Below, in pieces: positions 8,225 to 29,930 of a stretch of DNA of 39,960 bases. This stretch comes from a virus. Where the stretch lies: positions 1 through 39,960 of IMG/VR virus record IMGVR_UViG_3300044706_000011. The stretch is one strand, 5' to 3'. The notes below the pieces were generated by a model. It saw nothing but the letters and a program-made list of their open reading frames with translations, was not told the origin of the DNA and ran no database searches. The position numbers and the translations under genes were made by a program. Numbering within the stretch: the stretch's first letter is position 1; each line of letters opens with the position of its first letter.

Positions 8225-8368
8225 TGTGGTGGACGGTGCTGTGTTCTCCGGCATTCCATCGCATGAGTTTGCACCTCATGGTCAGGACGGGACACTCATA
8301 GCCCCTATCAGGGTTGCGCCGCCTTGCGAGCGGCTTCCCTGGGCGCGTCAGCCCGCGCATTCACCACA
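8225..8368 (-). ncRNA. Module C: third copy of the conserved-termini / variable-core element (see 15783-15908 and 16094-16214)
   Basis: Left end tgtggtggacggtgctgtgttctccggc and right end gcgtcagcccgcgcattcaccaca match modules A and B (right end 22/24 identical to B). The termini form the UGUGGUG/CACCACA closing helix. Confidence 0.5.
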
Positions 8369-8435
8369 CGACTGCTGACTGCCTGAGCTTTTGGGGCGCC
8401 AGTGGTACTCAGTAAGGCGATCCAATCAGCATGCG

Positions 8436-8458
8436 TGTGGTGCCGGACTTTCACCGGC
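8436..8458 (-). repeat. Isolated Y-type hairpin (tgtggtgccggactttcaccggc) related to the module left ends
   Basis: Same GGTG-GCCGG-N-CCGGC architecture as 8225-8252, 15783-15808 and 16094-16120. Confidence 0.4.
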
Positions 8459-8569
8459 ATGCCGTTTATCCCGAAGTTACGCGGTCACACTGCAAAGCCC
8501 GATGCTTTCGCAGAGCGGGTACGCGTCCATTATATACCCCAATTCAGCAGCCTCGGCATGAGATATTTT

Positions 8570-8798
8570 GCTCCGCAAACGCCAGATTCCGCGAAAACTG
8601 AGGGGCATGTAAAAGGCTCAGTTCGTTAACTTTGCGGAGCGGATTTCACGCTAAAACCCGCATGGTTGACGCATTTCTATATGAGCTTAGAAGGCTGATG
8701 CTCTATCCAACTGAGCTATGGGCAGGGTGTTGATTTATAAAGGTTTTCAGCGATTTCTAAAACTTGCTGCGCTCCGCAAGTAGTAGCTTGCTCCGCAA
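8570..8798. repeat. Four GCTCCGCAA(A) repeats flanking the att core: candidate integrase arm-type sites
   Basis: Copies at 8570-8578 (+), 8632-8640 (inverted), 8771-8779 (+) and 8790-8798 (+). Two lie on each side of the tRNA fragment, next to the int stop. Confidence 0.55.
8684..8723 (-). other. attP core candidate: 40-nt fragment identical in form to the 5' part of a tRNA-Arg(UCU) (acceptor, D arm, anticodon stem and loop)
   Basis: Minus strand reads GCCCATAGCTCAGTTGGATAGAGCATCAGCCTTCTAAGCT. tRNA likeness stops after the anticodon loop and no T arm follows. Sits between the lysis genes and int. Confidence 0.7.
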
Positions 8799-8799
8799 A

Positions 8800-9828
8800 T
8801 CACCTCACCGGAGTCACGATTTTACCACGGCGTAAGTAGTGTTTTCGAGTGGTCTTGACGCTATCGTGGCCCAGCAGATCGCTGGCAGCCTGCTCGCCTC
8901 GTTTGATTGAGGTGTCGTCCGCTGCCTTCGCCCGCAGGTCGTAAAACCAGAATTCCTTGATGGCATCGGCAAGTTCTGGATGCTTCTCGGCTGCCGCTGC
9001 TTTTGCCGCGGTGAACTGGTCTCGCAGGATCTGCTTCGTCATCGGCTGGCCGTCCCGAACCATCAGAATCTGTGCATGGACAGTCTTATGGTTGGCCTTC
9101 CGCGCCTTTATGCGCTCGATCAGGTCGGCCAACTCTCCGACTATGGCAATCCGCAGGCGCTTGCCTGTCTTGCCCTGTGCAACCGCCAATGTCCCGTCTT
9201 CAATGTCGTCCATGCGTGCCTTAAGGGCGTCGCCCGGCCGTTGTCCGGTCAGGTATGAGAAATCCATAGCTTCCTGCAGTGCTTCGCTAGCATGGGATCG
9301 CACGGCGGCGTACACCTCATCTGTGATGTACACCTCCCGCTTCTTGAGAGAGTGTCCATCGACTCCTCGGCACGGATTTTCCGCATCAGTGTACCCCCAT
9401 CGACGAGCGCGGTTCCAGAGGGCCGAGAACAGCCGCTTACAGCGATTCGCCGTGGTCGGTTTGTCCTTGTGCTTCTTCAGGAAATCATCGATTGTGATAG
9501 GCTTGATCTGGCTGAGAGAAAATTCAGCGAATTCGGCCTGCAGGTGCTTCATATCGGACTTGTGCGTGGCCTGGGTACTGGTAGCCAGCGTTGGCAGCAC
9601 TTCAGCAACATATTTAACGATCACGTCGCCAAATGTCGGCTCGGCTGTCTTTTCGATCTGGTTCAGCTCGGCATACCGGCGCAACGCCATGAAATAGTCA
9701 TCGCCAAGAGGGATTTCTTTGCGAGGCTTTGCCCCGGTATCGAAGTAGTAATAGACCCTCCCACTGCGCTGCACACGTTTGCGCATGTGCTTCGGCAGGT
9801 TCATATGTTTTGTTGATTTGCGTCCCAT
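8800..9828 (-). CDS. int: Tyrosine integrase (site-specific recombinase)
   Basis: C-terminal HDLRAKAADD ... LLGHDSVKTTRKHYLRR (R-H-R-Y type motifs). ATG at 9828 lies 4 nt after the xis-like stop; the ORF-track start at 9867 is a TTG. Confidence 0.9.
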   Translation of the reverse strand: MGRKSTKHMNLPKHMRKRVQRSGRVYYYFDTGAKPRKEIPLGDDYFMALRRYAELNQIEKTAEPTFGDVIVKYVAEVLPTLATSTQATHKSDMKHLQAEFAEFSLSQIKPITIDDFLKKHKDKPTTANRCKRLFSALWNRARRWGYTDAENPCRGVDGHSLKKREVYITDEVYAAVRSHASEALQEAMDFSYLTGQRPGDALKARMDDIEDGTLAVAQGKTGKRLRIAIVGELADLIERIKARKANHKTVHAQILMVRDGQPMTKQILRDQFTAAKAAAAEKHPELADAIKEFWFYDLRAKAADDTSIKRGEQAASDLLGHDSVKTTRKHYLRRGKIVTPVR

Positions 9829-9832
9829 TTTC

Positions 9833-10036
9833 TTACAGTATTCGTGCGACAGGCTTTGGCTCGGCAACCATCTGTTTGCGCCCTTCGATCGCAGCAGATG
9901 GCACTACCGGCTTGCCTGCTGCATTCACGTGGAACGGCAAGCCCATACGGCGCAGAGCTTCTATCTGCTTCGACTTGATCTTACGGCCGGTCAGTTCGGC
10001 CAGTTCATCCGGCGTCAAAAACATAGCCATCTTCAT
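9833..10036 (-). CDS. Excisionase-like small DNA-binding protein (DUF4224-type)
   Basis: MKMAMFLTPDELAELTGRKIKSKQIEALRRMGLPFHVNAAGKPVV pattern. Immediately upstream of int. AGGAAGGA SD. Confidence 0.7.
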   Translation of the reverse strand: MKMAMFLTPDELAELTGRKIKSKQIEALRRMGLPFHVNAAGKPVVPSAAIEGRKQMVAEPKPVARIL

Positions 10037-13757: not shown

Positions 13758-14053
13758 GGCCGCTTGCCCCATGCCGGCTGTCGCAGGGCCGCACGCTGCT
13801 TCGCCAGTTCTTCGATCTCGGCCACGCACGCGTCCATCAGCGTGAGAGTGTTGCGGCATCCTTCCAGCAAATCCTCGACTCTCTCTGGCACGTCGTCGCT
13901 ATCCGGCTGCATCCGGCGAAGAATCTGGGCTGCAGAGGCACCAAGTTGACCGCACAGCTTCGACAGGGCGAGCTTGGCATCCTCATGGGCGCCACGAACT
14001 GTCGAATAGCGGCCACGTGCGATCATGAGTTCATCGTCGGTCAGGTCGATCAT
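13754..14053 (-). CDS. Hypothetical protein (99 aa)
   Basis: ATGA overlaps with erf and with the next gene. Confidence 0.65.
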   Translation of the reverse strand: MIDLTDDELMIARGRYSTVRGAHEDAKLALSKLCGQLGASAAQILRRMQPDSDDVPERVEDLLEGCRNTLTLMDACVAEIEELAKQRAALRQPAWGKRP

Positions 14054-14667
14054 GCTTGCTCCGCGAGTTGTTGGTTGAGCTGTGCCTTGCGCTCGCTGGC
14101 GTGCTTCTGGAGCGCTTCTTTGCTGGCCGGGTACATGGCCACTGCTGCTTTCAGGTGCTCGCCGATCTCTTTGATCGTAGCGGCACCCTTGATGGCGTTG
14201 ACAGCATTCGCAAGGCCAACGCTGTCAGGCTGCGCGCGCACTTCGTGAACCTCGGCATCTGCATCGATGCTGGTTTCCTCGGTCGGGATGCAGAAGGCTT
14301 GGAATGCTGCGTACTTGTATGCTGCGCTCATCGCCTTGTTCGTGGCTTTGTCGCCGCTATCCATCGCTTCGCCGAACGTGGACACAGTGTGCTTGCTGCC
14401 ATCTTCAGCGCTCACCAGATCGAACTCGGCTTGCACCGTCACGTAGAACAGCGCGTTGCCCTTGGCGTTCGTGCGCTCAACGCATTCGCGCTTGATGCAA
14501 CGAGGCAGAACGCACAGCTTGTGCTTGGCCAGTAACGGAGCCAGAGCGTTGTACACAGCGTCGATGCCGCGGAAGTTGAAGCCCTGCGCCTGGTTTCGGC
14601 TGTCTTTGGAGATACCGCGTGCAGCCAGTTCGGCGGCGACTTCTGCGATTGCTTGGTAAACTTTCAT
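14050..14667 (-). CDS. erf: ERF-family single-strand annealing recombinase
   Basis: GFNFRGIDAVYNALAPLLAKH ... GEAMDSGDKATNKAMSAAYKYAAFQAFCIPT matches conserved ERF (P22 Erf family) blocks. Confidence 0.85.
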   Translation of the reverse strand: MKVYQAIAEVAAELAARGISKDSRNQAQGFNFRGIDAVYNALAPLLAKHKLCVLPRCIKRECVERTNAKGNALFYVTVQAEFDLVSAEDGSKHTVSTFGEAMDSGDKATNKAMSAAYKYAAFQAFCIPTEETSIDADAEVHEVRAQPDSVGLANAVNAIKGAATIKEIGEHLKAAVAMYPASKEALQKHASERKAQLNQQLAEQA

Positions 14668-14674
14668 GGTGTCC

Positions 14675-14851
14675 TCAGAATGGGATCAGGTCATCGTCCA
14701 AGTGGTGATCAGTGCTCGCCTCGTACTGCGGAACATGTTCGTCGTGCCAGTGAAGCATTTCCTCTGCTTGCTCGTCCTCGGTCATGCCATCAATGTACGC
14801 ATCCCTCAGATTGCGCTTGGCATGGGCTGCTTGGCTGTATTTGCGTTTCAA
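14675..14851 (-). CDS. Small acidic protein ending in an SSB C-terminal-tip motif (..HHLDDDLIPF). 58 aa from TTG 14851 or 36 aa from ATG 14785.
   Basis: Hand translation. The TTG start overlaps the upstream stop (TTGA). The stop lies 7 nt before erf, whose GAGGA SD is in the gap. No OB-fold-sized body. Confidence 0.5.
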   Translation of the reverse strand: MKRKYSQAAHAKRNLRDAYIDGMTEDEQAEEMLHWHDEHVPQYEASTDHHLDDDLIPF

Positions 14852-14961
14852 CTCGGTCTCCAGATAGCGGTTTGGTCAGCGTCATCCAGCTCCTGCACTT
14901 CCGCTACGATGAACAGGAATGCAGCGAGGAATACGAGGGCTTGGGCTATGTTTCGAATCAT
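14848..14961 (-). CDS. 37-aa single-TMD peptide (MIRNIAQALVFLAAFLFIVAEVQELDDADQTAIWRPS)
   Basis: ATGA overlap with the upstream gene stop at 14958-14961. Below the ORF-track size cutoff. Confidence 0.45.
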   Translation of the reverse strand: MIRNIAQALVFLAAFLFIVAEVQELDDADQTAIWRPS

Positions 14962-15266
14962 GGCTCGTCTTTCGGCGGCTTCATGCCCTTGATGTTTCCG
15001 AGCTTGTCTTGCGCACGTTGAAGCATCCGCCTGGCTTTGGTCAGTTCGTTTTCAGCCTTAGCAAGCAGATAGCTTTTGGCCGCTTCCCATGTATCGTGAT
15101 ACTGCGCAAATTCAGAGTTCTTAGCTTCGCGACGCTCACCCTTTTCGTCCTTGGACCAGACTCTGCTGTTTCTGGCCAAATAGACTGATGCTTCGGTCTC
15201 TCGTAAAACTTCCACTCGTTCAATCTTGTTGTCGCCCCAGCCAGTCTTATATTTCACGATGCTCAC
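14958..15266 (-). CDS. Hypothetical protein (102 aa from GTG 15266)
   Basis: GGAAGGA SD 8 nt upstream of the GTG. The ORF-track start at 15332 is a TTG without an SD. Confidence 0.6.
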   Translation of the reverse strand: MSIVKYKTGWGDNKIERVEVLRETEASVYLARNSRVWSKDEKGERREAKNSEFAQYHDTWEAAKSYLLAKAENELTKARRMLQRAQDKLGNIKGMKPPKDEP

Positions 15267-15355
15267 GGCAAAATTCCTTCCATAATTCCAGCAATCAAGA
15301 TCACCACGCCCAGCCCAGTCATGCCGAACCAAGGCCGCGCATCAGTCCATTCCAT
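15263..15355 (-). CDS. 30-aa single-TMD peptide (MEWTDARPWFGMTGLGVVILIAGIMEGILP; alternative ATG at 15379)
   Basis: Stop overlaps the downstream GTG start (GTGA). Weak SD. Confidence 0.35.
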   Translation of the reverse strand: MEWTDARPWFGMTGLGVVILIAGIMEGILP

Positions 15356-15408
15356 CCCGTCCAGCAGTAAGCAGTCCATTAGGCTGCGGCGCGCGATGCG
15401 GGCGGCGA

Positions 15409-15624
15409 TCATGGTTGCACCTCGACAGGCTCGATCAGGTCGAATTCAGACTCCTCGCCATGGAACCAGTACGAGCCAGTAGGGCTGAAAATAGACGCGC
15501 GGTCGCCCCAATACGCGATGATGTTGTCGCTACCAGCAGCCGACGCATAGACTGTGGCTACATCGCCGCCACGCATGCGCCAAGTGCTGCCAGGCTCAAA
15601 GGTCAAATTGTTCTCGGATGCCAT
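15409..15624 (-). CDS. Hypothetical protein (71 aa)
   Basis: AGGAG SD 8 nt upstream. First CDS downstream of the ORF-free island. Confidence 0.65.
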   Translation of the reverse strand: MASENNLTFEPGSTWRMRGGDVATVYASAAGSDNIIAYWGDRASIFSPTGSYWFHGEESEFDLIEPVEVQP

Positions 15625-15668
15625 CGCTGCTGCTCCTGTTCTGTCCGGCGCCGCCGGCGGTTGGTTTA

Positions 15669-15692
15669 TTGGTGCCGGTTACGCTCTCCGGC
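15669..15692 (-). repeat. Y-type hairpin copy (minus sense GCCGG-AGAGCGUAA-CCGGC-ACCA) near the 3' end of the island
   Basis: Plus strand ttggtgccggttacgctctccggc resembles the module left ends. Confidence 0.4.
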
Positions 15693-15782
15693 GCCGCGCA
15701 GGTACTACAAGGCTTGGGTTTCGCCTCCCTGTCGGCCGTTTTGCCTTCGTTGCGGTTCAACTGAACGGACCGAACTCTCCGC

Positions 15783-15908
15783 TGTGGTGGCCGGTGCTGA
15801 TCTCCGGCTTATCTGGTCCATCCGTTACGGCCCCTTCTGCTCATTTGGGGTATGGCTTCACCCACTATTGCCAGCATCACGATCGCATCAGCCTGCGAAT
15901 TCACCACA
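15783..15908 (-). ncRNA. Module A: about 126-nt element with conserved inverted termini and a unique core
   Basis: Left end tgtggtggccggtgctgatctccggc (15783-15808), right end gcatcagcctgcgaattcaccaca (15885-15908). Minus-sense UGUGGUG/CACCACA closing helix. GCCGG-N9-CCGGC hairpin whose loop AUCAGC complements the upstream GCUGAU. Confidence 0.55.
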
Positions 15909-15910
15909 GA

Positions 15911-16014
15911 ACAAGGGGCTGGATTCGAACCAGCGACCTCCTGTAACATCGACCACCTGTTTTCACCCGGGCAGATCGCCAATGTCAGGCGCCCTACCTC
16001 TGGGCTACCCTTGC
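15911..16014 (-). ncRNA. tRNA-shaped RNA element (104 nt) with acceptor, D and T arms but a 50-nt rod in place of the anticodon stem-loop
   Basis: Minus sense reads GCAAGGG-TA-GCCC-AGAGGTA-GGGC-G-[50 nt]-AGGTC-GCTGG-TTCGAAT-CCAGC-CCCTTGT. The acceptor extends to 12 bp (15906-16019). No anticodon loop can be drawn and no CCA is encoded. Confidence 0.7.
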
Positions 16015-16093
16015 TCTGTAGGGGCTCCTTACGGGAGCCAATCGGCGGCACTAACTTTCTCCGCCCGCCACAACAGTTATCGATTGCTGCTCG

Positions 16094-16214
16094 TGTGGTA
16101 GCCGGTGCTGAATTTCCGGCATACGGATCCTTATCCGCTTGTTCCCGTCCCTGACTACCCACCGTTTGGAACCGTGGTCCGCCAGTTGGCGCATCAGCCT
16201 GCGCATTCACCACA
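16094..16214 (-). ncRNA. Module B: second copy of the conserved-termini / variable-core element
   Basis: Left end tgtggtagccggtgctgaatttccggc (16094-16120), right end gcatcagcctgcgcattcaccaca (16191-16214; 23/24 identical to A). The closing helix contains a G.U that would be an A-C mismatch on the + strand. Confidence 0.55.
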
Positions 16215-16290
16215 TGACGAGCACCTGTCCGGGCGTCCCCTTTAAGACAGGCCGCGACCAAGTGCCGCGTTCCTAGGATTGCTCGTCATG
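16213..16290 (-). ncRNA. 78-nt element closed by a perfect 11-bp helix, directly 5' of module B (same position as the tRNA-shaped element relative to module A)
   Basis: Minus sense CATGACGAGCA ... TGCTCGTCATG encloses two hairpins (CGCGG-CACTTGG-TCGCG and CCTGTC-N16-GACAGG). Confidence 0.5.
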
Positions 16291-16811
16291 TGATGACTGG
16301 CTTACGACCAGTCAGGCGAGCTATTCCCGTAATTCGCGCCGTAGTCTTTCGGCGTTGCAGCGGTTTGATGCATCCATGTGTCGATGCTTATTCGTGGCCA
16401 ACACATGGCGCACATCACGGGCTTTTCCCCTCGCGCTACCGAAGGATTGAAAGGTGCAACGCGCCACATTTGTTCAGTGCCGTTCTGTTCTCGGCCGTCA
16501 GGGCATTTCAGATCCCGCTGCGTCGATTTCCTGACCCGACATCAGGGCAAGCCTTGCGTTGTACGTCGGTGCAAGGCGATCCGTTAGCCGTATTACTTAC
16601 CCCGGCTCCGGGCGATTAGGTGCAGGCTCTTCCCCTGCTTGGCGATGCTCACCTGAGTCATCGCGTTGCCCGCGCTGCCACTTGGCTGCGGGCCGGCGGC
16701 CGACCAGGCGTTAGTTCATATATGCACTATGGGATTTGCTGTAACTTCGCATATCGCCTCCTGTCAGTAGTTGAGTCCTCGTTCATCGCTTGGGACCATC
16801 GCGCAAAAACT

Positions 16812-17015
16812 TCAGTCGTGTTTACTACTCATCCTTTGCATGAGGGCTCTGTGAATTTCAGTCCCATTGCTCCTGTACGGGATATCAAACTGCGCCTCCC
16901 ACTCTCGACGCCTGCGGTCGTCCTCCATCGCATACGCAACCGTGTACGCATCGCCTTCGTCGTCCTCGCGCCGCTGACGTGCGCTGTAGCCGAAGTCGTC
17001 GTAGTGGCGAGACAT
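16812..17015 (-). CDS. Hypothetical acidic/basic small protein (67 aa)
   Basis: The ATG at 17015 overlaps the upstream stop (TGATG). Last CDS before the ORF-free island. Confidence 0.55.
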   Translation of the reverse strand: MSRHYDDFGYSARQRREDDEGDAYTVAYAMEDDRRRREWEAQFDIPYRSNGTEIHRALMQRMSSKHD

Positions 17016-17122
17016 CAGAAGCAGCCCAGCAGGAACAGAACGCCGACGATGATCACGGCAACTGAGAAGACAGTTATGCCGTCTACGATCAGGTCGTGTG
17101 CGGTGTAGCGGTTGTGTTCCAT
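17015..17122 (-). CDS. 35-aa single-TMD peptide (MEHNRYTAHDLIVDGITVFSVAVIIVGVLFLLGCF)
   Basis: GGAGG SD 8 nt upstream. Starts 2 nt after the upstream stop. Confidence 0.5.
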   Translation of the reverse strand: MEHNRYTAHDLIVDGITVFSVAVIIVGVLFLLGCF

Positions 17123-17124
17123 GG

Positions 17125-17487
17125 TCAGGCCTCCGACACACCTAGAGCTGCACGTGCTTCCTCGGGCCAGTAGGTGCTTTCGTTCCAATTCGGCGTTTCG
17201 CTTTCCATGCGAAAGCACGGGATTTCTTCGCCATCAATTTCAAGAACTGGAGTGGCCCACGTAGACGCAAGATATGTGTACGTGTTCTCTTTCGGAACCG
17301 GAATACCATCGCGCCAGATCGTGCCCGAGGTCCATTCCATGTCGCTCGACAGGCCGGCGACGGCCTCAGCCGGATTGCGCTCAGCAATGATCTGTGCGGC
17401 CTTGATCCAGTCGAAGACCATCCGCTCACGGAAGCGGTTCGCTTCGCCCATTGCAAATGCTGTCAGTGTGTCCATTCTGTTCTCCAT
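17125..17487 (-). CDS. Hypothetical protein (120 aa; alternative ATG at 17475)
   Basis: Clean ORF. GGAGAA precedes the second ATG. Confidence 0.7.
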   Translation of the reverse strand: MENRMDTLTAFAMGEANRFRERMVFDWIKAAQIIAERNPAEAVAGLSSDMEWTSGTIWRDGIPVPKENTYTYLASTWATPVLEIDGEEIPCFRMESETPNWNESTYWPEEARAALGVSEA

Positions 17488-18720: not shown

Positions 18721-19143
18721 TCATCTCCTCATGCTGAGCAAGTCATCGATGTCCATGCTCTCAATAACAAGCCGAACTGCGTCGTCTATGAGTTCCCGTT
18801 GATCGGAGTTCGCCAGACGGTAGACCGCAAGAAGACGGATCTCCGTTGAGGCTTCCTCAAGAATCTTTCGTAGAGCCACTGTTTGGGTGGTCTCTACGAG
18901 AGACACCTCCTGATGTTCAACGTCCATCCATCCTTCCGGCAGCCCCAAAGTCTTCTCAATCTCTCTACATGATCCACTGCTGATCACTCGTGGCTTACCA
19001 GTCACGGAATGAGTAGAGGCGTTCAACCATTGGCTCACCTGGGACTGGCCCTTTTGTAGCCGATCAGCGAGCCCCTGCACTCCTCCAGATTCATCTCGTA
19101 GGCGTCGTAAGTTATCGCGCCGTACATCTTCGATTTTTTTCAT
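18721..19143 (-). CDS. cI: CI-like repressor with N-terminal HTH and no S24 peptidase domain (140 aa from ATG 19143; GTG 19161 possible)
   Basis: GLADRLQKGQSQVSQWLN HTH-like segment. Divergent from the cro-like gene across operator-bearing DNA. The predicted PRM start coincides with ATG 19143. Confidence 0.8.
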   Translation of the reverse strand: MKKIEDVRRDNLRRLRDESGGVQGLADRLQKGQSQVSQWLNASTHSVTGKPRVISSGSCREIEKTLGLPEGWMDVEHQEVSLVETTQTVALRKILEEASTEIRLLAVYRLANSDQRELIDDAVRLVIESMDIDDLLSMRR

Positions 19144-19149
19144 TTTTGC

Positions 19150-19178
19150 ATTAGACGCCACGTTGGCTAAATGTTGAA
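19150..19178 (-). promoter_or_regulatory. PRM candidate: TTCAAC-17 nt-TCTAAT (minus strand), predicting a leaderless cI mRNA
   Basis: -35 at 19178-19173 and -10 at 19155-19150. The ATG at 19143 is 7 nt after the -10. Confidence 0.5.
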
Positions 19179-21012: not shown

Positions 21013-22056
21013 GTGGCAACTCCCCAGCTCGAGGACGGTCACGTCCGAATTGCAAACGAACTGCTCGAGGCGATTCTCGGCTTCGGCTTTTCGCAGCGCG
21101 AGCTGCTTGTACTGCTGACCATCATCCGCAAGACGTACGGCTTCAACAAGAAGGAGGATGACATGTCTGCCTCGCAGATCGGCGCCGTATGCGGCATGGC
21201 CCGTCAGCACGTCACGACGACCTTGAACGCGCTGGTGGCCCGCAATGTCATTGCGAAGCGTCCGGGCCAGTTCGGAATGATTATCGGCGTGCAGAAGGAC
21301 CACTGCAAATGGGTGTCGATCGAGCAAATGAAAGGTGCAGCAGATAGTCCCAAATCGGGACTAGTCCAAGATCGGGACATGTCCCAAATCGGGACAGATG
21401 GTAGTCCCGAATCGGGACAGGTCGATAGTCCCAAATCGGGACACACAAAAGACAACCTTCCAAAAGACAACCACCAAAAGACAAATTCTTGCGCTCCGAC
21501 GTCGGGCAGCGAGGCTGGAAGCGAAACCCTAGCAGACCGCAAAGGTCGGGCCATGATGGGCGAACGCTTTGAGCGCTTCTACGCTGCCTACCCTCGCAAG
21601 AAGTCTCGAGCAGCGGCCGAAAAGGCGTTTGCCAAGCTGAATCCGGACGATGACGCCCTCGAGCAAATGCTGACGGCTATTGCTCGCACTCTGGCATCTG
21701 GCGAGTGGGCCGACCCGAAGTTCATCCCCTACCCGGCTACCTGGCTGAACGCTGGTGGCTGGATGGACGAAGTGCAGACCGCTTACCAGCCCGAGGAGGT
21801 CGAGGTCATCGAGGCGTTCAACGGCGCCTTGGGTGAGCAGCTGGGCGTCGTCACCCTGACGCCGTTCATCGCCAACCGTGCTGCCGCCATCCGCGACTTC
21901 CGCACGTTCTCGAGCAAGCCGGGTTTCGTTGAGCGCTTCTTCCCTTGGGTGCGCGACAACGCCAAGTTTCCGCCTAGCGTCGGTTTTGATTGGGTCATCA
22001 GCCGCCATGGTTACGCCAACCTGACCAGCGGTCAACACAGCAGAAAAGCAGCATGA
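21013..22056 (+). CDS. Replication initiator, lambda O-like (phage_rep_O N-terminal domain) carrying the origin iterons
   Basis: LEDGHVRIANELLEAILGFGFSQRELLVLLTIIRKTYGFNKKED ... winged-helix pattern. GTG start with AAGGAG SD. ATGA overlap with dnaB. Confidence 0.8.
   Translation: MATPQLEDGHVRIANELLEAILGFGFSQRELLVLLTIIRKTYGFNKKEDDMSASQIGAVCGMARQHVTTTLNALVARNVIAKRPGQFGMIIGVQKDHCKWVSIEQMKGAADSPKSGLVQDRDMSQIGTDGSPESGQVDSPKSGHTKDNLPKDNHQKTNSCAPTSGSEAGSETLADRKGRAMMGERFERFYAAYPRKKSRAAAEKAFAKLNPDDDALEQMLTAIARTLASGEWADPKFIPYPATWLNAGGWMDEVQTAYQPEEVEVIEAFNGALGEQLGVVTLTPFIANRAAAIRDFRTFSSKPGFVERFFPWVRDNAKFPPSVGFDWVISRHGYANLTSGQHSRKAA
21347..21485. repeat. Origin of replication candidate: five 15-bp palindromic iterons GTCCCAAATCGGGAC plus three CAAAAGACAA repeats
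   Basis: Iterons at 21347, 21364, 21381, 21404 and 21428 (spacing 17/17/23/24), followed by an A-rich repeat tract. All lie inside the O-like gene. Confidence 0.8.
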
Positions 22057-23417
22057 GCGAACAGAACTCCATCCCGCATTCGATCGAAGCCGAGCAAGCC
22101 GTCTTGGGCGCACTCCTGCGCTTCAACGACTGCATCGACAAGCTTGGCGACCTGCAGGCCAAGCACTTCTACCGAGAGGATCATCGCACGATCTATTCGC
22201 AGATCGTACGTCTGATCTCGCAGCACGAACCAGCCGACGTTATCACCGTCTACGGCGCTCTCGAGCAAATCGGCAAAGCCGAGGAAGTTGGCGGTCTGGC
22301 ATACCTGAACTCGATGGCACAGAGCACGCCGTCCGCCGCCAATGTCGGCCAGTACGCTCGAGTCGTCTCCGACCGCGCCCTGCTCCGCGGCGTCATGTAC
22401 GTAGCCGACTCGATCAATGCCCTGGCGCAGAACCCGAAGGGCAAGAATGCCGACGAAGTGCTCGATTCGATGCAGTCTCTGGTCAGCACATTGGCTGAGC
22501 GCCGTGTACGCAACGAACCGCGCATGGTGCGTGAAATCCTGCATGAAGTCATCGAAGGCATCGGTAAGCGCGCCGAGGGCCACCAGTACGCCATGCCGAC
22601 CGGTATCGAGGGAATCGATCGTCTCCTCAACGGAGGAGCCAGGCCGGGCAATCTGATCATCGTTGCTGGGCGCCCCTCAATGGGCAAGACAGCGCTTACC
22701 TCCGACATGGGCCTGAATATGGCCGAGAACCTGAGTGTCCTGAACTTCAGTATGGAGATGGAGGGCAGAGAGATAGCCAGCCGGGCCTTGGCCAACCGTG
22801 GTCGCGTCGCGCTTGAAAAGATTATGGGCGAGATCCCCGGCAACGATGACAACGCGTGGTCTGGCGTCACGACAGGCACGATGAAGCTTAACGATCTTCG
22901 TTTCGCTATTGATGACACGGCCGCGATCTCGCTGCTCGAGCTGCGTATGAAGGCGAAAGCTTGGAAGAGAAAGCATGGACTCGACGTGATCATCGTGGAT
23001 TACATCGGCCTTATGACTGGTGGAGAAGGCGATACGCGCTCTGCTCAAATCGGCTTCTTCTCTCGTGGGCTCAAGGCGCTCGCCAAGGAATTAGGCATTG
23101 CCGTGATCTGCCTGGCGCAGTTGAACCGGAACGTTGATGGACGCTCCGACCACAAACCGATGCTTTCCGACCTACGCGATTCTGGAGAGATCGAGCAAGA
23201 CGCGGACGTCGTGATGTTCGTCCATCGCGCGGAGATGTACGACCCCGAGAACGAAGAGATCAAAGGCTATGCCGAGGTCTTGGTTCGGAAGAACCGTAGC
23301 GGCAGGCTCGGCGATGTACCGCTCAAGTTCGACGGCGCAATCTGCCGATTCAGTGACTGGAGAGGGAGCGTCCCAACCATCTCGAGCAAGGGTCGCAGCT
23401 CGAGATTCGATGGGTGA
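22053..23417 (+). CDS. dnaB: Replicative DNA helicase DnaB
   Basis: IPHSIEAEQAVLGALL N-terminal signature. Walker A GRPSMGKTAL. Typical C-terminal RecA-like blocks (DYIGLM, LAQLNR). Confidence 0.92.
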   Translation: MSEQNSIPHSIEAEQAVLGALLRFNDCIDKLGDLQAKHFYREDHRTIYSQIVRLISQHEPADVITVYGALEQIGKAEEVGGLAYLNSMAQSTPSAANVGQYARVVSDRALLRGVMYVADSINALAQNPKGKNADEVLDSMQSLVSTLAERRVRNEPRMVREILHEVIEGIGKRAEGHQYAMPTGIEGIDRLLNGGARPGNLIIVAGRPSMGKTALTSDMGLNMAENLSVLNFSMEMEGREIASRALANRGRVALEKIMGEIPGNDDNAWSGVTTGTMKLNDLRFAIDDTAAISLLELRMKAKAWKRKHGLDVIIVDYIGLMTGGEGDTRSAQIGFFSRGLKALAKELGIAVICLAQLNRNVDGRSDHKPMLSDLRDSGEIEQDADVVMFVHRAEMYDPENEEIKGYAEVLVRKNRSGRLGDVPLKFDGAICRFSDWRGSVPTISSKGRSSRFDG

Positions 23418-23626
23418 TCAACATGAGCCGCCCTACCGCCCCCTGCGTCCTCTGCACCCACTTCCATCGCCACGCAGAAGCCCCACCAGCACACGGCTAC
23501 TGCGAAGGCTACGAGAGGTTCAGGCGCCACGACGACACGAACGAGGCATGTCCTCTGTGGAATCGGGCGAAGGACGAACAGAGGCGTAGGGCTTGGGCAG
23601 AACAACAACCGAAGGAGAGAAATTGA
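23414..23626 (+). CDS. Hypothetical Cys/His-rich small protein (70 aa; ATG at 23423 possible)
   Basis: GTGA overlap with dnaB. CVLCTHFHRH ... C ... C motif. Confidence 0.55.
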   Translation: MINMSRPTAPCVLCTHFHRHAEAPPAHGYCEGYERFRRHDDTNEACPLWNRAKDEQRRRAWAEQQPKERN

Positions 23627-24438
23627 ATGAGCTGGCTCTTTTCGCAGGCGCTGGTGGAGGAATACTCGGAGGGCACCTCCTTGGATGGCGAACCGTCTGC
23701 GCAGTTGAACGTGACGCCTACGCAGCACAAGTTCTGGCGCAACGACAAAACGATAGATGCCTCCGACCTTTCCCGATTTGGTCTGACGTTACGACTTTTG
23801 ACGGCCGCCCGTGGCGCGGAATTGTTGATGTCGTATCTGGCGGCTTTCCGTGCCAGGACATCAGCGCAGCAGGAACTGGCGTCGGGATCACCGGGAGGCG
23901 CAGCGGACTTTGGAGCCACCAGAAACGGATCATTCGCGAAGTACGACCACGCTTCGTCTACGTGGAGAACAGTCCAATGCTCACTTCTCGGGGACTCGGA
24001 CGAGTTCTCGGAGACCTGGCCGAGATGGGGTTCTATGTCGAATGGGGTGTCGTATCTGCGGCCGATACCGGCGCTCCCCATCTGCGCGACCGAATCTGGA
24101 TTATGGCCTACGCCGACGGTATGCGGGAATTACAACCGGAAAGGTGCCAGCAAGACCAGTGGCGATGGGCTGGCGACCGCGGTTCGTATGTGGCGAACTC
24201 CGAACGCATCGGATGCGGACAAGTGGAGCAAGCAGAGTCTGGAAGAACGAAAGGCGAAGGGGCAGCAGATCCGGTTAAACACTCAGGTTTCCCCAGACGG
24301 CTCCCAAGCTGGCCTTCTGAATCCGGACTGGATCGAGTGGCTGATGGGGTGGCCCACCGGGTGGACCGAATTAAAGCCCTTGGAAATGGACAAGTTCCAA
24401 GAGTGGCAGCAGCAGCATGGAGGATTTTAACGACATGA
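23623..24438 (+). CDS. DNA (cytosine-5) methyltransferase (TTG start)
   Basis: Motif I LFAGAGGG, motif IV GGFPCQDIS, motif VI VYVENSP, motif VIII HLRDRIWI, motif X LGNGQVP. AGGAG 5 nt upstream of TTG 23623. Its stop overlaps the next small ORF (ATGA). Confidence 0.85.
   Translation: MNELALFAGAGGGILGGHLLGWRTVCAVERDAYAAQVLAQRQNDRCLRPFPIWSDVTTFDGRPWRGIVDVVSGGFPCQDISAAGTGVGITGRRSGLWSHQKRIIREVRPRFVYVENSPMLTSRGLGRVLGDLAEMGFYVEWGVVSAADTGAPHLRDRIWIMAYADGMRELQPERCQQDQWRWAGDRGSYVANSERIGCGQVEQAESGRTKGEGAADPVKHSGFPRRLPSWPSESGLDRVADGVAHRVDRIKALGNGQVPRVAAAAWRILTT
23627..24430 (+). CDS. Alternative +1-frame ORF (267 codons, ATG start) co-extensive with the methyltransferase gene; coding status unresolved
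   Basis: Stop-free from 4 nt after the MTase start to 8 nt before its stop. Trp-rich with WPTP and EWLMGWPTGWT strings. See findings. Confidence 0.3.
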   Translation: MSWLFSQALVEEYSEGTSLDGEPSAQLNVTPTQHKFWRNDKTIDASDLSRFGLTLRLLTAARGAELLMSYLAAFRARTSAQQELASGSPGGAADFGATRNGSFAKYDHASSTWRTVQCSLLGDSDEFSETWPRWGSMSNGVSYLRPIPALPICATESGLWPTPTVCGNYNRKGASKTSGDGLATAVRMWRTPNASDADKWSKQSLEERKAKGQQIRLNTQVSPDGSQAGLLNPDWIEWLMGWPTGWTELKPLEMDKFQEWQQQHGGF

Positions 24439-24521
24439 CCCACCGCCAAATCATCCTAGAACGCCTAGCAGCCAAGTGTTTCACCATGCTCATGATGCGC
24501 TTAGGCGTGAAGCAGAAGTAG
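24435..24521 (+). CDS. Hypothetical 28-aa peptide
   Basis: ATGA overlap with the MTase stop. No other support. Confidence 0.3.
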   Translation: MTHRQIILERLAAKCFTMLMMRLGVKQK

Positions 24522-24564
24522 ATACCAACCGCGCGAAGGCGCAGACAACGAAAGGAATGCAGAC

Positions 24565-24843
24565 ATGACCGAACAACAATTCGCCTACTGGCTCCAAGGC
24601 TTCGCTGAACTGAATCCGCAGCCGCCGACCGCCGAGCAATGGCAATCGATCCGCGAGCATCTGGCGACCGTCTTTAAAAAGGTTACGCCGGAAGTCCAGA
24701 ATCGCCAGATGGCACTTGACTCAATCAAGAACAATGGTCTTCAAGATTATCTTGACCGTCAAAAGCAATCACAAAATCCATACGTTCCGAAAGCTCCGGA
24801 TCAGCCGTACTACCTCGGCCAGCCCGGTGGAATTATCTGCTGA
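24565..24843 (+). CDS. Hypothetical protein (92 aa)
   Basis: GAAAGGA SD. Lower third-position GC than the structural genes. Confidence 0.65.
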   Translation: MTEQQFAYWLQGFAELNPQPPTAEQWQSIREHLATVFKKVTPEVQNRQMALDSIKNNGLQDYLDRQKQSQNPYVPKAPDQPYYLGQPGGIIC

Positions 24844-24900
24844 CCTACCACCCCGCCCGGCCAGTACCGGGCGTACGACAACTACGGGAGAAACTGATAG

Positions 24901-25137
24901 ATGGCAAGGAAACTGACGAAGTGGTTCCACGCAGACATGAAGCCAACACGAATTGGCGTTTATGAGACCAAAGACGGCGGAATGGAGGGAACAGGTTTTC
25001 AGTACTGGGATGGTAAAAGCTGGCAGTTCTGGGGCTATTCGGCTGAGGATGCATTTCTTTGCCGGAATAAAGGCAAGTCAATTTTCCAGAACGTCCAATG
25101 GCGCGGACTCGCCAGCGATCCGGAGAAGTCGGCATGA
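24901..25137 (+). CDS. Hypothetical protein (78 aa)
   Basis: GGGAG SD. ATGA overlap downstream. Confidence 0.65.
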   Translation: MARKLTKWFHADMKPTRIGVYETKDGGMEGTGFQYWDGKSWQFWGYSAEDAFLCRNKGKSIFQNVQWRGLASDPEKSA

Positions 25138-25370
25138 CCATCCTCCAATCAATTCTCGCGGGCCTTGTCGTCATTGGCATCCTTCTTTACACCGGGCCTG
25201 CTTTCATAGATCGAGCAGGCAAAAAGACACATGAAAGCGCACTTAACCCGTGGCTTTACAAGGACCAAGTGACTGGCTGCGAATATCTCGCGAGCAGAAA
25301 CGATAGCGCGCTCGCGCCCCGCATCGCTGCCGACGGCAAGACGCACATGGGCTGCGGGGTAAAGCCATGA
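25134..25370 (+). CDS. Hypothetical N-terminally anchored membrane protein (78 aa)
   Basis: TMD ILQSILAGLVVIGILLY. ATGA overlaps on both sides. Confidence 0.6.
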   Translation: MTILQSILAGLVVIGILLYTGPAFIDRAGKKTHESALNPWLYKDQVTGCEYLASRNDSALAPRIAADGKTHMGCGVKP

Positions 25371-25501
25371 CGATCATGATCCCTACATGGCTGCTTTGGA
25401 CACTTGGGCTCTGCATTGGCATCCCCGTTATTGTCGCCATCCTTTTCTTGGCGTGGCTTGGATGGGTAGCCATGCATTGGGCTGGGAGTCCATTCCGATG
25501 A
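25367..25501 (+). CDS. 44-aa two-TMD peptide (MTIMIPTWLLWTLGLCIGIPVIVAILFLAWLGWVAMHWAGSPFR)
   Basis: ATGA overlaps on both sides. Below the ORF-track cutoff. Confidence 0.45.
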   Translation: MTIMIPTWLLWTLGLCIGIPVIVAILFLAWLGWVAMHWAGSPFR

Positions 25502-25920
25502 ATAGCTCATTCACCCGCACCACGACGCTCAAGCGAACGGGGATGAAGCGCAAGCCGCTCGGCCAGCGTGAGCCTGTGCTCAAGTCAACCAGCAAGCTCA
25601 AGTCGCGGAGCATCAAGGGTCGCGCTCCGACTGTAGCTGAGCGCGAGCGCATGGACAAGATCGCTGAAATCGGATGCATCGCCTGCTTCCACGAAGGTAT
25701 CTACAACCCGCATGTCAGCTTGCATCACATCGACGGGCGCACGAAGCCGGACGCACACATGCTTGTGCTTCCTCTCTGCGCGCCGCACCATCAGCAAGAC
25801 GACACCGATCCGCTGCAGCGCCCGAGCGTTCACGGCCGCAAGAAGACGTTCACTGCGCGCTACGGCACCGAGATGGAATTGCTGGCTGAATGCCTCGTAC
25901 TGATTGGGGAGACGGCATGA
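25498..25920 (+). CDS. HNH/His-Me finger nuclease of the P1 Ref-like (recombination enhancement) type
   Basis: Basic N-terminus, then IGCIACFHEG ... SLHHIDGR ... LPLCAPHH. Confidence 0.65.
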   Translation: MNSSFTRTTTLKRTGMKRKPLGQREPVLKSTSKLKSRSIKGRAPTVAERERMDKIAEIGCIACFHEGIYNPHVSLHHIDGRTKPDAHMLVLPLCAPHHQQDDTDPLQRPSVHGRKKTFTARYGTEMELLAECLVLIGETA

Positions 25921-26432
25921 GAGACAGTATGAGAATCCTCGCACTTGATCCCGGGCCGAAAGAAACGGGTTACTGCGTCTACGACAATGGCGACGTACTC
26001 GTGGCTGGTGTCATGGATAACCTTGAGATGTTGGACTATTTGCGAGTACGTTCCAGTCTGCACGCACTTGGATGCCGCCTTTGCATCGAAATGATCGCAT
26101 CCTACGGCATGCCTGTTGGCCGCGAAGTGTTCGAAACCTGTGTCTGGATCGGGCGCTTCCAGCAGGCGTGGCATTCTCCCAGCGCGGTTGAACTGGTCTA
26201 CCGCAAGGACGTGAAGCTTCATCTGTGCGGCACCACGAAGGCAAAAGACCCTAACGTGCGCCAAGCGCTGCTTGACCTTTTCCCGCCTACTGGTGGTGGC
26301 AAGACCCCACAAATCGGCACCAAGAAGCAGCCCGGCCCTCTGTATGGCGTTTCGAGTCACGCATGGCCTGCGTTGGGCGTCGCAATCACCGCAGCGGCCA
26401 AGCTGCGCGCGCTGAAGGAGAAAGCAAAGTGA
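25917..26432 (+). CDS. RuvC-like Holliday junction resolvase (phage type)
   Basis: MRILALDPGPKETGY (catalytic Asp context), CIEMIASYG, SSHAWPALGVA. ATGA overlap with the upstream gene. Confidence 0.6.
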   Translation: MRDSMRILALDPGPKETGYCVYDNGDVLVAGVMDNLEMLDYLRVRSSLHALGCRLCIEMIASYGMPVGREVFETCVWIGRFQQAWHSPSAVELVYRKDVKLHLCGTTKAKDPNVRQALLDLFPPTGGGKTPQIGTKKQPGPLYGVSSHAWPALGVAITAAAKLRALKEKAK

Positions 26433-26623
26433 ACAGACTCCTAACGAAAGACGAAATGGACAAGGAATTTATGGCTCTCATTAAGAACGGAGCCAAAGAT
26501 CTCGGCGTCCCTGAAATGGCCGTCGCAATCGTCTTTGGAGCGATGTGCGGTGCCCCCTTATCTGACGCTGATATGCAGTGGGCGGCTGACGAGATTTCGA
26601 AGGCAGCAAAGGAGAAAGCATGA
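26429..26623 (+). CDS. Hypothetical protein (64 aa, GTG start)
   Basis: GTGA overlap upstream and ATGA downstream. Confidence 0.5.
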   Translation: MNRLLTKDEMDKEFMALIKNGAKDLGVPEMAVAIVFGAMCGAPLSDADMQWAADEISKAAKEKA

Positions 26624-26844
26624 AGCATTGTGTCGACTGCAAACATTACGACCTTGCGAATGGCGTTGGTTTCGAGAAATGCCGTGCGCCTCACAACAAG
26701 TTTACGGAGAACCCAATATCTGGCGAACGCAAGCAAATTTGGCCATATTGCGAAACGCATCGAGCCCTATCGTTCCCGTTCTACATATTCGCGAAGGTTT
26801 GCGGCAGTTCTGGGCGTTGGTTTGAGCCAAAGGAAACCACATGA
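26620..26844 (+). CDS. Hypothetical Cys-rich protein (74 aa)
   Basis: CVDCKH ... C ... C pattern. ATGA overlaps. Confidence 0.6.
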   Translation: MKHCVDCKHYDLANGVGFEKCRAPHNKFTENPISGERKQIWPYCETHRALSFPFYIFAKVCGSSGRWFEPKETT

Positions 26845-26969
26845 TCCCCGCCATCATCGTTCTAGCCATCTGGCTAGCCCTCTCTCCCTTCATTGGCTGG
26901 CTATGGGGCCGCTTCGTTCGCGTAGGGATGGTGGAGCTGCATAAGGAAGATAAGGAGACGCCGCCTTGA
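26841..26969 (+). CDS. 42-aa single-TMD peptide (MIPAIIVLAIWLALSPFIGWLWGRF...)
   Basis: ATGA overlap upstream. Its stop overlaps the next ATG (TGATG). Confidence 0.45.
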   Translation: MIPAIIVLAIWLALSPFIGWLWGRFVRVGMVELHKEDKETPP

Positions 26970-27238
26970 TGTCGCCTATTCGAAAGCTTTTATTCCAATG
27001 GGCCGCTCACCGCATTGCATCGGCCAATAGTCTTCCTGCGGACGTTCAACGCGTTATCGAAGAAATAAATCGACTTGATCCAGAATCAGCTCAAGTGATC
27101 GAATTGGAATATTGCGATCCTCGGCCGCAGAAAACAAAGGCGGCAACGCTTCGCATGTCGCGGCAGATGTTTTCTGCCAAGCTAAGGTGGATCCACGATC
27201 ATTTGGCATTCTTACTGTGGGGAAACTCAATGTCATGA
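26969..27238 (+). CDS. Putative late-gene transcription regulator (sigma-70 region-4-like HTH; in the Q position)
   Basis: Last early-right gene before the late operon. ESAQVIELEYCD ... KAATLRMSRQMFSAKLRWIHDHL resembles a region-4 HTH. Confidence 0.4.
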   Translation: MSPIRKLLFQWAAHRIASANSLPADVQRVIEEINRLDPESAQVIELEYCDPRPQKTKAATLRMSRQMFSAKLRWIHDHLAFLLWGNSMS

Positions 27239-27277
27239 CAAATTAGTTCTCGCCTCCGTTTACATGGATCACTAACA

Positions 27278-27305
27278 TTGAAGCTGTGGGCCATTGCGCC
27301 TTAAT
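27278..27305 (+). promoter_or_regulatory. Weak late-promoter candidate TTGAAG-16 nt-CTTAAT
   Basis: Only sigma-70-like match in the 81-nt gap between the regulator and the late genes. Confidence 0.2.
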
Positions 27306-27325
27306 CAGTTTTAATCGGGGTGATC

Positions 27326-27505
27326 ATGAGCGGTCTCGGTAAAGGTCAAGAAGGCAATCCCAAATACGCGGCCAACTGCGCCCGCGAATCGCGCGAAGCA
27401 AAAGCGGGCACTTTTCATGGCGGCACTCCGCCGAGCGGCCCACGTCCTGAACCGGTACGAATCAACGGCATCCGCGCACCGAAAGACCGTGGCCTGAGCA
27501 AGTAA
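27326..27505 (+). CDS. Hypothetical basic protein (59 aa)
   Basis: GKGQEGNP motif resembles the small-terminase N-terminal KGQSGNP motif at 28326. First ORF of the late operon. Confidence 0.5.
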   Translation: MSGLGKGQEGNPKYAANCARESREAKAGTFHGGTPPSGPRPEPVRINGIRAPKDRGLSK

Positions 27506-27507
27506 TC

Positions 27508-28323: not shown

Positions 28324-28325
28324 CA

Positions 28326-29928: not shown

Positions 29929-29930
29929 CC

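Follow-up and report, generated by a model that had tools for sequence, protein, structure and literature searches.

What occupies the 1.19-kilobase (kb) island at positions 15625 to 16811 of IMG/VR virus record IMGVR_UViG_3300044706_000011, of which we analyzed positions 1 to 39,960 (39,960 nucleotides, nt; the window), when the minus-strand genes around it overlap each other, as 15409-15624 does with 15263-15412 and 14958-15332 with 14848-14961? The island lies on the minus strand between a short upstream gene that ends at 16812 and a gene for a protein of 71 amino acids (aa) at 15409-15624. A model that read the letters alone (the original prediction) had observed how tightly the neighboring genes are packed and proposed a large structured RNA locus for the gap. 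The minus-sense, non-coding, structured locus that it described is borne out; in place of one large RNA, the reading that we favor, and to which we give an even chance, is that small RNA units, each folding on its own, are transcribed together as an array within an early-left operon and excised by the tRNA machinery.

The evidence that carries this answer comes from a module of about 125 nt that the original prediction had correctly seen twice in the island, and of which it missed a third copy in the window and a wide spread outside it. The three copies, with their scores against a covariance model, R1, built in this analysis, are:

16094-16214, minus strand: module A; R1 73.4 bits, E 1.7e-18; 69-nt insert; the fold shows helices P1, P2 and P4.
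15783-15908, minus strand: module B; R1 77 bits; 74-nt insert; starts 2 nt past the tRNA look-alike described below.
8225-8368, minus strand: module C; R1 57.5 bits; beyond the integrase gene and an attP-like region.

Modules A and B are alike at their ends and unrelated in their middles, and their shared 5' motif GGTGAATNCGCAGGCTGATGCG occurs three times in the window against zero expected, the third time at 8344-8365 on the minus strand. All three copies have the frame of the R1 family, which runs from the 7-base-pair (bp) closing helix P1 through the linker AAU, helix P2 (GCGCA-GGCUGA-UGCGC), an insert and hairpin P4 (GCCGG-AGAUCAGCA-CCGGC, with a loop ending in CAGCR) to the 3' strand of P1, on which P4 abuts and stacks. 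P1 most commonly reads UGUGGUG/CACCACA, its outer three pairs being free to vary, and P2 of module C carries a compensatory A-U to G-C change. Among the 39 diverse modules that form the covariation set, 99% of cells pair and seven pairs show double changes, values that none of 500 shuffles reaches and from which shifted helix registers are also far removed. Covariation supports P0 (a further helix, upstream of P1), P1, P2, P4 and a contact between GCUG and CAGC in two of the loops; the covariation among homologues that the original prediction had named as a check was found in these modules and in the loop variants given below. Rfam at its gathering score returned nothing over the modules in 26 related loci, and a literature search by full text and keywords returned no description of the motif strings, though one may exist elsewhere in the literature. 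On these comparisons the module appears to be an undescribed RNA family, absent from Rfam 15 and failing every named family tested.

The P2 loop carries GCUG, which can pair with CAGC in the P4 loop; the P4 loop ranges in length from 8 to 16 nt and keeps CAGC or CAGU beside its 3' stem. The initial module searches fixed the P2 loop, and variants of it were then sought separately, with the following outcome:

P2 loop GGCCGA, three unique modules: P4 has CGGC in all three, a compensated change from U-A to C-G.
P2 loop GGUUGA, one unique module: P4 has CAAC, a compensated change from C-G to U-A.
P2 loop GGUUGA, one unique module: P4 has CAGC, giving a U-G wobble.
P2 loop GGAUGA, three unique modules: P4 has CAGC or CAGU, uncompensated.

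The loop-loop contact is well supported, and it could be either intramolecular, in the manner of the tRNA elbow, or intermolecular. A second sequence type of like architecture, UGUGGUGAAUGCG-GCYNAG-CGCA ... CCGGG-AGGCA-CCCGG-CACCACA, has loops that are complementary in other letters (GCY versus GGC); several enterobacterial phages have it about 250 nt downstream of their type-1 module.

The family is widespread, and the module stands by itself in hundreds of other phages. Exact copies of the 21-nt frame motif are present in at least 120 IMG/VR viral contigs and in 114 species-representative genomes of gamma-, beta- and some alphaproteobacteria, among them Enterobacterales, Aeromonas, Pseudomonas, Halomonadaceae, Moraxellaceae, Xanthomonadales, many Burkholderiales, Gallionella, Thauera, a few Alphaproteobacteria and some metagenome-assembled genomes of other phyla. 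One enterobacterial variant is present in 1592 of 5426 complete E. coli genomes (about 29%) and in 83 deposited phages, including mEp460 and Stx2 phages, where its copies are unannotated or lie under a 'hypothetical protein'. The open reading frames (ORFs) that flank the module at 120 viral loci were clustered and given PHROGs annotations, and downstream features were scored in 194 unique contexts. Modules, which sit in strongly transcribed phage leaders and operons, have two recurrent settings, one in the PL leader, downstream of a cI-like repressor (22 loci), and one between the Q antiterminator and the holin, endolysin and Rz genes (14-18 loci), and their strand is that of the neighboring gene for 22 of 22 cI-like repressors, 14 of 14 Q genes and 18 of 18 Rz spanins. 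An intrinsic terminator follows within 70 nt in 16% of the 194 contexts versus 3.8% of controls, a Shine-Dalgarno (SD) sequence with a start codon follows within about 80 nt in 32, and a standard tRNA on the same strand follows within 60 nt in 13, against a single one upstream; modules also lie within or beside phage tRNA arrays at a tRNA-like spacing of 6-20 nt. A T-run no more than 22 nt upstream of the unit occurs at 12 of 48 loci with the enterobacterial P0, and the ones inspected are terminator hairpins at Q/lysis loci.

Well-studied genomes hold copies as well:

Phage P1 (NC_005856), 69819-69916, plus strand: type-1 module, 64.7 bits.
Phage P1 (NC_005856), 70080-70199, plus strand: type-2 module, 29.4 bits.
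e14 of E. coli K-12 (NC_000913.3), about 1201263-1201381 (L127 6264-6382), minus strand: type-2 copy.

The C1-controlled ban leader of phage P1, which runs from a promoter through a dicF-like region, trnA, trnT, tRNA-like P0 domains and the two modules to tciA, is an array of the same kind as that of the window. The annotated plp and upl are on the other strand from its modules, and in e14 the annotated ymfH shares the module's strand and has its start at the first base of the module; the ORF calls ymfH, plp and upl may be spurious or may be genes that overlap RNA genes.

In the island, a tRNA look-alike precedes module B:

15910-16014, minus strand, 105 nt: tRNA look-alike; Rfam tRNA (RF00005) 51.8 bits versus a gathering score of 29.

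This score vindicates the tRNA-shaped element of the original prediction. The look-alike covers positions 1-71 of the tRNA model in full, with a normal 7-bp acceptor stem, D arm and T arm (GGUUCGAAUCC), whereas its anticodon region measures 42 nt against 9 in the model and forms an extended hairpin with a 12-nt loop, without the 5-bp anticodon stem and the 7-nt loop that present an anticodon; ARAGORN called no tRNA on it. It folds better than shuffled sequence (z = -3.6) and encodes no CCA, the discriminator U being followed by CUG. A leader ACAGA (16019-16015) can pair with a trailer UCUGU (15910-15906) that overlaps the start of module B. The element is kept, at 105 nt, in two related phages, L131 (51.2 bits) and L139 (51.8 bits); a search with a tRNA-like pattern returned these two among viral contigs and none in the species genomes. 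Pairing survives most changes among the three copies: in the T stem G-C becomes G-U, in the long arm G-U becomes A-U and G-C becomes G-U, and in the acceptor G1-U72 becomes G1-C72. The exception is an A-C mismatch in L139, where the inner stem has its base. The G-U pairs of the look-alike fit the transcribed strand alone. It is a variant, not seen before, of a known kind, the tRNA, and from its sequence it would be a tRNA-shaped RNA unable to decode.

The look-alike is one case of a more general arrangement, in which the module is usually preceded by a domain closed by the helix P0, the 3' strand of which stops about 2 nt short of P1. At least nine of ten P0 pairs form in 57% of contexts versus 29% of controls, and the helix covaries (GGUAAGAGCA/UGCUCUUUCC, GUUGAGAACA/UGUUCUCAAC, GACAAGGACA/UGUCCUUCUC and many unrelated pairs), closing a domain of 40-200 nt that often has a T-arm-like hairpin. 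In several unrelated phages the domain before the module is itself an aberrant tRNA look-alike recognized by Rfam:

L130: 64 nt, anticodon arm nearly deleted, 44.9 bits.
L138: 126 nt, 40.9 bits.

The window holds three such units: A (P0 domain and module A), B (tRNA look-alike and module B) and C, with these P0 domains beside the look-alike:

16211-16292, minus strand: P0 domain of unit A, the '78-nt element'; holds two hairpins within its closing helix and abuts module A.
8373-8431, minus strand: P0 domain of unit C; UGCUGAUUG pairs with CAGUCAGCA; ends 4 nt before module C.

The first of these is the helix-closed element that the original prediction had described, and its closing helix is real: UGACGAGCA (16288-16280) pairs with UGCUCGUCA (16223-16215) over 9 bp, extendable to 13, and 200-nt windows over the domain give z values of -6.3 and -4.5. 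In units A and B the outermost P0 pairs compete with the first bases of P1. A further piece shared by domains that precede modules, ACGGG(N)YCAUAWCCCAAUCYAC, is a T-arm-like hairpin with a loop of the UUCAUAU type, seen in phage P1 (L266 14050-14600 and 14730-15080) and in the leaders of L091, L030 and L122; its strict pattern occurs in 4 of 235 upstream regions versus a background of 0.1%.

Within the island itself, nothing in 15625-16811 looks protein-coding and the locus is non-coding: its ORFs on either strand have zero Pfam or PHROGs matches. The original prediction had likewise seen no coding signal, and here two of its details need correction. The longest minus-strand ORF is not 55 but 150 codons (TTG start, 15809-16261), and because it crosses the tRNA-like element and both modules, and L139 is without 16475-16022, it is very unlikely to be coding. 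Nor is the transcribed strand free of SD-preceded ORFs, as had been stated: a 13-codon ORF at 16752-16711 on the minus strand (MRSYSKSHSAYMN), identical in L139, stands behind a perfect AGGAGG at 5-nt spacing, and it could encode a leader peptide or be due to chance. A 55-codon ORF is contained in 16300-16475, without an SD sequence or a Pfam or PHROG match.

Folding of sliding 200-nt windows against dinucleotide shuffles gave the island a mean z of -1.85 for the minus strand and -0.71 for the plus, where the flanks had +0.18 and +0.24, which upholds the strand specificity that had been read from G-U pairs. The dense structure of the earlier description is likewise above chance, though it does not fill the island: about 500 nt fold better than chance, the excess is centered on 15900-16400 (z of -4.2, -6.3 and -4.5), and folding is weak over 16400-16811 (z from -0.4 to -1.5), so that there is little evidence of structure in the 5' third (16811-16400). 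Searched at the gathering score, the whole window matched tRNA as the sole Rfam 15 family, and a search of 15300-17100 at E up to 10 added no real family, the matches to YrlA, mir-9338 and SNORA47 being at chance level; the earlier statement that the locus belongs to no named RNA family thus holds, the tRNA model apart. A blastn search of 15400-17000 against deposited phages found no match, and the whole window gave a single match of 139 nt, to Burkholderia phage KL4. The island and those of its parts that lie outside the units are:

15625-16811, minus strand: the island, between the short upstream gene and the 71-aa gene.
16476-16811, minus strand: cassette U, with the 13-codon mini-ORF, TTACAG/TATATG and the hairpin GCCTTGC-N13-GCAAGGC (about 16577-16551).
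16300-16475, minus strand: 5' part of a window-specific cassette, with the hairpins CCATGTG-N21-CACATGG and TGACTGG-N7-CCAGTCA.
16022-16093, minus strand: spacer with two hairpins, including GGCUCCCGUAAGGAGCC, and end of the window-specific cassette; fold z -0.6, not significant.
15625-15782, minus strand: 3' spacer and 5' untranslated region of the 71-aa gene; the last ~55 nt are the CCGCCGGCGGCGCCGG palindrome and a ribosome-binding site.

The hairpins of cassette U and of the window-specific cassette are the three that the original prediction had named, all of which are in the sequence. It had also placed a possible internal promoter here, and the string TTACAG-16-TATATG is present at 16744-16717, inside the 13-codon ORF, but the promoter scan did not pass it.

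Comparison with related phages shows that the island is a mosaic. In L131 the protein gene is followed only by a small hairpin, the look-alike, one module and then a gene homologous to that for the 71-aa protein. Over 17133-16476, L139 matches the window at 94% identity; it skips 16475-16022 and resumes at the look-alike, from where the match runs on at 84% as far as 15622. Cassette U forms one alignment block with the upstream gene in L139 (94%) and is not in L131, the segment 16300-16475 is absent from L139, L131 and every other locus compared, and 16033-16022 is common to the window and L131. Behind the look-alike, the modules of the window, L131 and L139 differ wholly in their inserts (about 74, 45 and 100 nt) and partly in their frames; whole modules are therefore exchanged. 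A module homologue in L233 shares the insert of module B, with 77% identity over 125 nt. The 3' spacer 15625-15782 is shared with L139, and its last ~50-75 nt also stand after modules in L131, L077, L025 and L132. A more distant phage found through the flanking 120-aa protein (L125) has ordinary ORFs and no island, and a search of metagenomes with the cassette-U pattern yielded chance coding matches only and no further relatives. Mosaic relatives of this kind argue against a single integrated large RNA and against a decayed gene; the original prediction had named an intact protein-coding gene in homologous phages as a sign of a pseudogene, and because those phages carry RNA elements and no intact gene, that test fails to refute the non-coding reading.

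The genes around the island fit the early-left operon of a temperate phage, with a repressor-like gene at 18721-19161, an Erf-like recombinase gene at 14050-14667 and an integrase gene at 8800-9867. A PL-like promoter, TTGCAC-17-TAATAT, at about 18023-17995 on the minus strand was read by eye and is unlisted by the promoter scan; just upstream of it is a strong intrinsic terminator at 18139-18123 on the same strand (GCCGCG-CACGA-CGCGGC, then U6), which closes a small ORF downstream of the repressor gene. The gene directly upstream of the island probably has its true start at an ATG near 17015, to judge from the L139 homologue; the same comparison suggests that the real genes at 17015-17218 and 16812-17015 on the minus strand are shorter than the longest ORFs, one being a 35-aa hydrophobic peptide (MEHNRYTAHDLIVDGITVFSVAVIIVGVLFLLGCF) and the other a 67-aa protein that starts MSRHYDD.

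Near unit C, one further feature is listed at low confidence:

8435-8490, minus strand: possible degenerate module; P4-like GCCGG-UGAAAGU-CCGGC on GUGUG/CACAC, without P2.

R1 misses this feature, and its interior GCGUAACUUCGGGAUAAAC recurs in the insert of a module in L133. A promoter-like TATATAAT near 8530 precedes it and unit C. The arrangement of 8225-8490 suggests a separately expressed, moron-like copy beside the attachment region. An attP-like region at about 8560-8790 on the minus strand, just past the integrase stop, has four copies of TTGCGGAGC, one of them inverted, that look like arm-type integrase sites, and a ~40-nt 5' fragment at about 8723-8684 resembles, by eye, tRNA-Arg(UCU).

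The inserts are the variable part of the family, with lengths from 24 to 165 nt (median 74), 144 similarity clusters among 182 unique sequences and weak structure (z -0.9); related loci usually have one R1 copy and sometimes two or three. Individual inserts have likenesses of their own. The one at L083 3946-4054 is a fragment of a tRNA D arm and T arm (Rfam tRNA, 34 bits), and those at L093 4571-4686 and L104 595-710 share 25 of 29 nt with positions 254-282 (helix 11) of E. coli 16S rRNA. Mimicry of host RNA was considered for the inserts in general and rejected, since the matches of all 182 to the rrn operon are at chance level. The module B insert begins with 14 nt (UCGUGAUGCUGGCA, 15894-15881 on the minus strand) that would pair perfectly with a plus-strand transcript of 35174-35187, inside the ORF 34758-36005, a match with about 0.02 expected for that query alone and marginal after multiple testing.

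We propose that these elements would work together as follows. A unit consists of a helix-closed 5' domain, which in unit B is the look-alike that lacks an anticodon loop, and of a module of about 65-200 nt that begins 0-4 nt further on. The module itself has a tRNA-like topology, its 7-bp closing stem stacking on the 5-bp 3' hairpin as the acceptor does on the T arm, with the 5' hairpin in the place of the D arm and the replaceable insert in the place of the anticodon arm; the GCUG-CAGC pairing would be an elbow-like contact. RNase P would cut on the 5' side of the acceptor-like stems, RNase E/Z and exonucleases would act on the 3' side, and excision from the long transcript would leave stable small RNAs; the processing, the stability and any function in trans we infer. 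The near-invariant frame would be a scaffold and a recognition surface for a conserved host component, and the hypervariable insert, if it has any role, would be the specific part. A bolder form of this proposal, which we regard as speculative and rather improbable, is that the module is a pan-proteobacterial tRNA-shaped scaffold for RNA 'payloads', matured by the tRNA machinery, that together with anticodon-less tRNA decoys takes part in phage-host or phage-phage conflict, or that forms multimers through its loops. Were it true, the units might for example tie up a conserved factor of the host or a defence that targets tRNAs, and the frame would represent a new RNA-protein or RNA-RNA interaction in phage P1, Stx phages and E. 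coli K-12.

Several observations weigh against the array of tRNA-like units as we propose it. The Rfam tRNA model matches neither 16214-16094 nor 15908-15783 at E up to 10, and because the modules have no tRNA-model score, their recognition by RNase P is an analogy of shape. No excess of complementarity was found between inserts and the +/-1.5 kb of sequence that flanks them: the longest complementary run averages 8.1 nt in own flanks versus 7.2 nt in the flanks of other modules, with overlapping distributions and no long own-specific matches. They also have no common closing helix, a single anticodon-arm-like helix having been rejected at 15% of inserts versus 20% of shuffles; because complementarity and a common helix are lacking and structure is weak, a payload role for the insert is without positive evidence. 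The near-invariance of loops and junctions across distant hosts exceeds what a passive scaffold would need and points to a specific partner. The three GGAUGA modules leave the loop contact uncompensated, and 16811-16300, about 40% of the island, is left unexplained by an array of units.

As the main rival, the units might instead act in cis on transcription, by antitermination of a put-like or boxA nut/rrn-like kind, exerted on the elongating RNA polymerase, or by shielding the untranslated stretch from Rho, and terminators would then be read through in early, late and tRNA-array transcription; we think it a possible but rather doubtful explanation. Modules head antiterminated operons in the PL-leader and Q-lysis loci, terminators and tRNAs are enriched downstream of them as described above, and the strict conservation across proteobacteria would be consistent with a site bound by RNA polymerase or Nus factors. 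The boxA-like sequence UGCUCUUU, which we take to be identical to the rrn boxA core, stands 11-12 nt before the module in 65 of 241 contexts (27%, versus a background of 1.65%), and (G)UGCUCUUUCCGU, with 8 nt of identity to the boxA core, stands at a fixed offset before many enterobacterial modules (for example L122 3499-3512, L091 and L040). The same sequence, however, pairs with the upstream GGUAAGAGCA and is the 3' strand of P0, and a boxA or nut reading is weakened because the boxA-like sequence lies in a covarying helix. The boxA of a nut or rrn site (YGCUCUUUA) is single-stranded and lies beside a hairpin, downstream of an early promoter. The window copies lack the consensus and have only GUGCUCG, UGUUCU or nothing at that offset, where GUGCUCGUCA stands at 16224-16215. 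Modules also occur in tandem and deep in operons (here 1.2 kb from the PL-like promoter) and downstream of Q, which would make antitermination by an RNA superfluous; no second copy was found on the PR side of the 7-kb E. coli loci; and the put fold differs (PMC9378689) while HK022 has no convincing module. A plainer role in cis, in which the modules are punctuation of the mRNA, signals for processing and stability that split the polycistronic transcript, shield the ends so made and yield no RNA product acting in trans, we judge unlikely. It would suit their intergenic position, the SD sequences and start codons close downstream in 32 of the 194 contexts, the tRNA-like shape and adjacency to tRNAs, and inserts that look unconstrained. 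Punctuation, however, needs a shape and not a 21-nt sequence identical across alpha-, beta- and gammaproteobacterial hosts, many copies, at a terminator or among tRNAs, have no mRNA that they could protect, and the inserts have not shrunk from their median of 74 nt to the 24-nt minimum.

A single, integrally folded RNA of 1.19 kb, of the GOLLD or ROOL kind, now seems very unlikely. The island is long, structured and beside a tRNA-like element, as are phage-borne GOLLD and ROOL near tRNAs, and complementary loops could pair between molecules; but the region matches no GOLLD, ROOL, raiA, OLE or HEARO model at E up to 10, single units stand alone in most phages, 16400-16811 is barely structured, and the cassettes come and go independently in L131 and L139, which largely refutes the idea. 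Most improbable of all, in our view, is that the sequences act as DNA, as recombination linkers or single-stranded hairpins for module exchange, or are decayed coding sequence. Whole modules with unrelated inserts are swapped between close phages, so that the frames could be homology anchors, and annotated ORFs do cover modules (ymfH on the same strand, plp and upl on the opposite one). A role as DNA is at odds with compensatory changes and G-U pairs that fit the transcribed strand only, with the stronger folding of that strand and with an orientation that always matches the operon, and a coding past is at odds with the want of any protein-family match and with relatives that carry RNA elements and no gene.

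If the array of tRNA-like units that we favor is right, a conserved structured RNA has stood unannotated in some of the best-studied phages (the ban leader of phage P1, e14, mEp460, Stx2 phages). Its 21-nt core is identical across alpha-, beta- and gammaproteobacterial phages and therefore suggests a universal host partner. The pairing of modules with look-alikes bears on why phages carry tRNA-like genes that do not decode, and on the role of long untranslated leaders in early and late phage operons. In practice the family would be a new entry for Rfam and for annotation and a natural scaffold with room for inserts of 24 nt up to more than 160 nt, and E. coli offers a direct way to test it.

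Among known systems, GOLLD and ROOL are phage-borne RNAs that often adjoin tRNAs, and YrlA is also a tRNA mimic; the units of the window share with them the ornate fold, the phage setting and the nearby tRNA genes, and differ in being small, modular and individually mobile. GOLLD, ROOL, raiA, OLE and HEARO gave no match at E up to 10 in 15300-17100 and none at the gathering score over the window; YrlA (RF02553) reached 17.5 bits versus a gathering score of 69 (E 2.2), no Ro-like gene was noted among the neighbors examined, and the YrlA model places a T-arm-like hairpin before the D-arm-like one, whereas the look-alike keeps the normal order. C4 of phages P1 and P7 and CI of P4 are RNase P-processed phage RNAs with a closing stem and variable specificity regions. 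They (RF01695, clan CL00128) are likewise small structured RNAs of phage operons, and C4 and isrK are present in the same E. coli prophages as the module; unlike them, the module gives no match to the C4 model at E up to 10, and its inserts show no excess of the complementarity to neighboring sequence by which C4 and CI act. The put RNA of HK022, about 70 nt in two stem-loops, binds the zinc-binding domain of the RNA polymerase beta' subunit (PMC9378689). Like put, nut and rrn sites, modules lie downstream of PL and ahead of terminators, and many enterobacterial ones follow UGCUCUUU; they differ from put in fold, and their boxA-like sequence is base-paired in P0. Identity with put was rejected on its different architecture and on HK022 itself, where the motif is absent from 22000-30000 and the best R1 match in the whole genome (17.8 bits, E 0.033) is unconvincing. 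PasD/STnc100, StxS and DicF are described as short base-pairing prophage small RNAs with Rfam models; none of these models matches the modules, which share with them their niches, the Q-lysis intergenic regions and early leaders (bioRxiv 10.64898/2026.05.13.724894), and phage P1 has a dicF-like region in the same leader as its modules. The canonical tRNA differs from the module in that the module has a 9-nt '3' loop', Watson-Crick pairing between loops, no CCA and no tRNA-model score; with tRNAs and phage tRNA arrays the units have in common the stems of the look-alike and the topology of the module, with its closing stem on a 3' hairpin and its paired loops.

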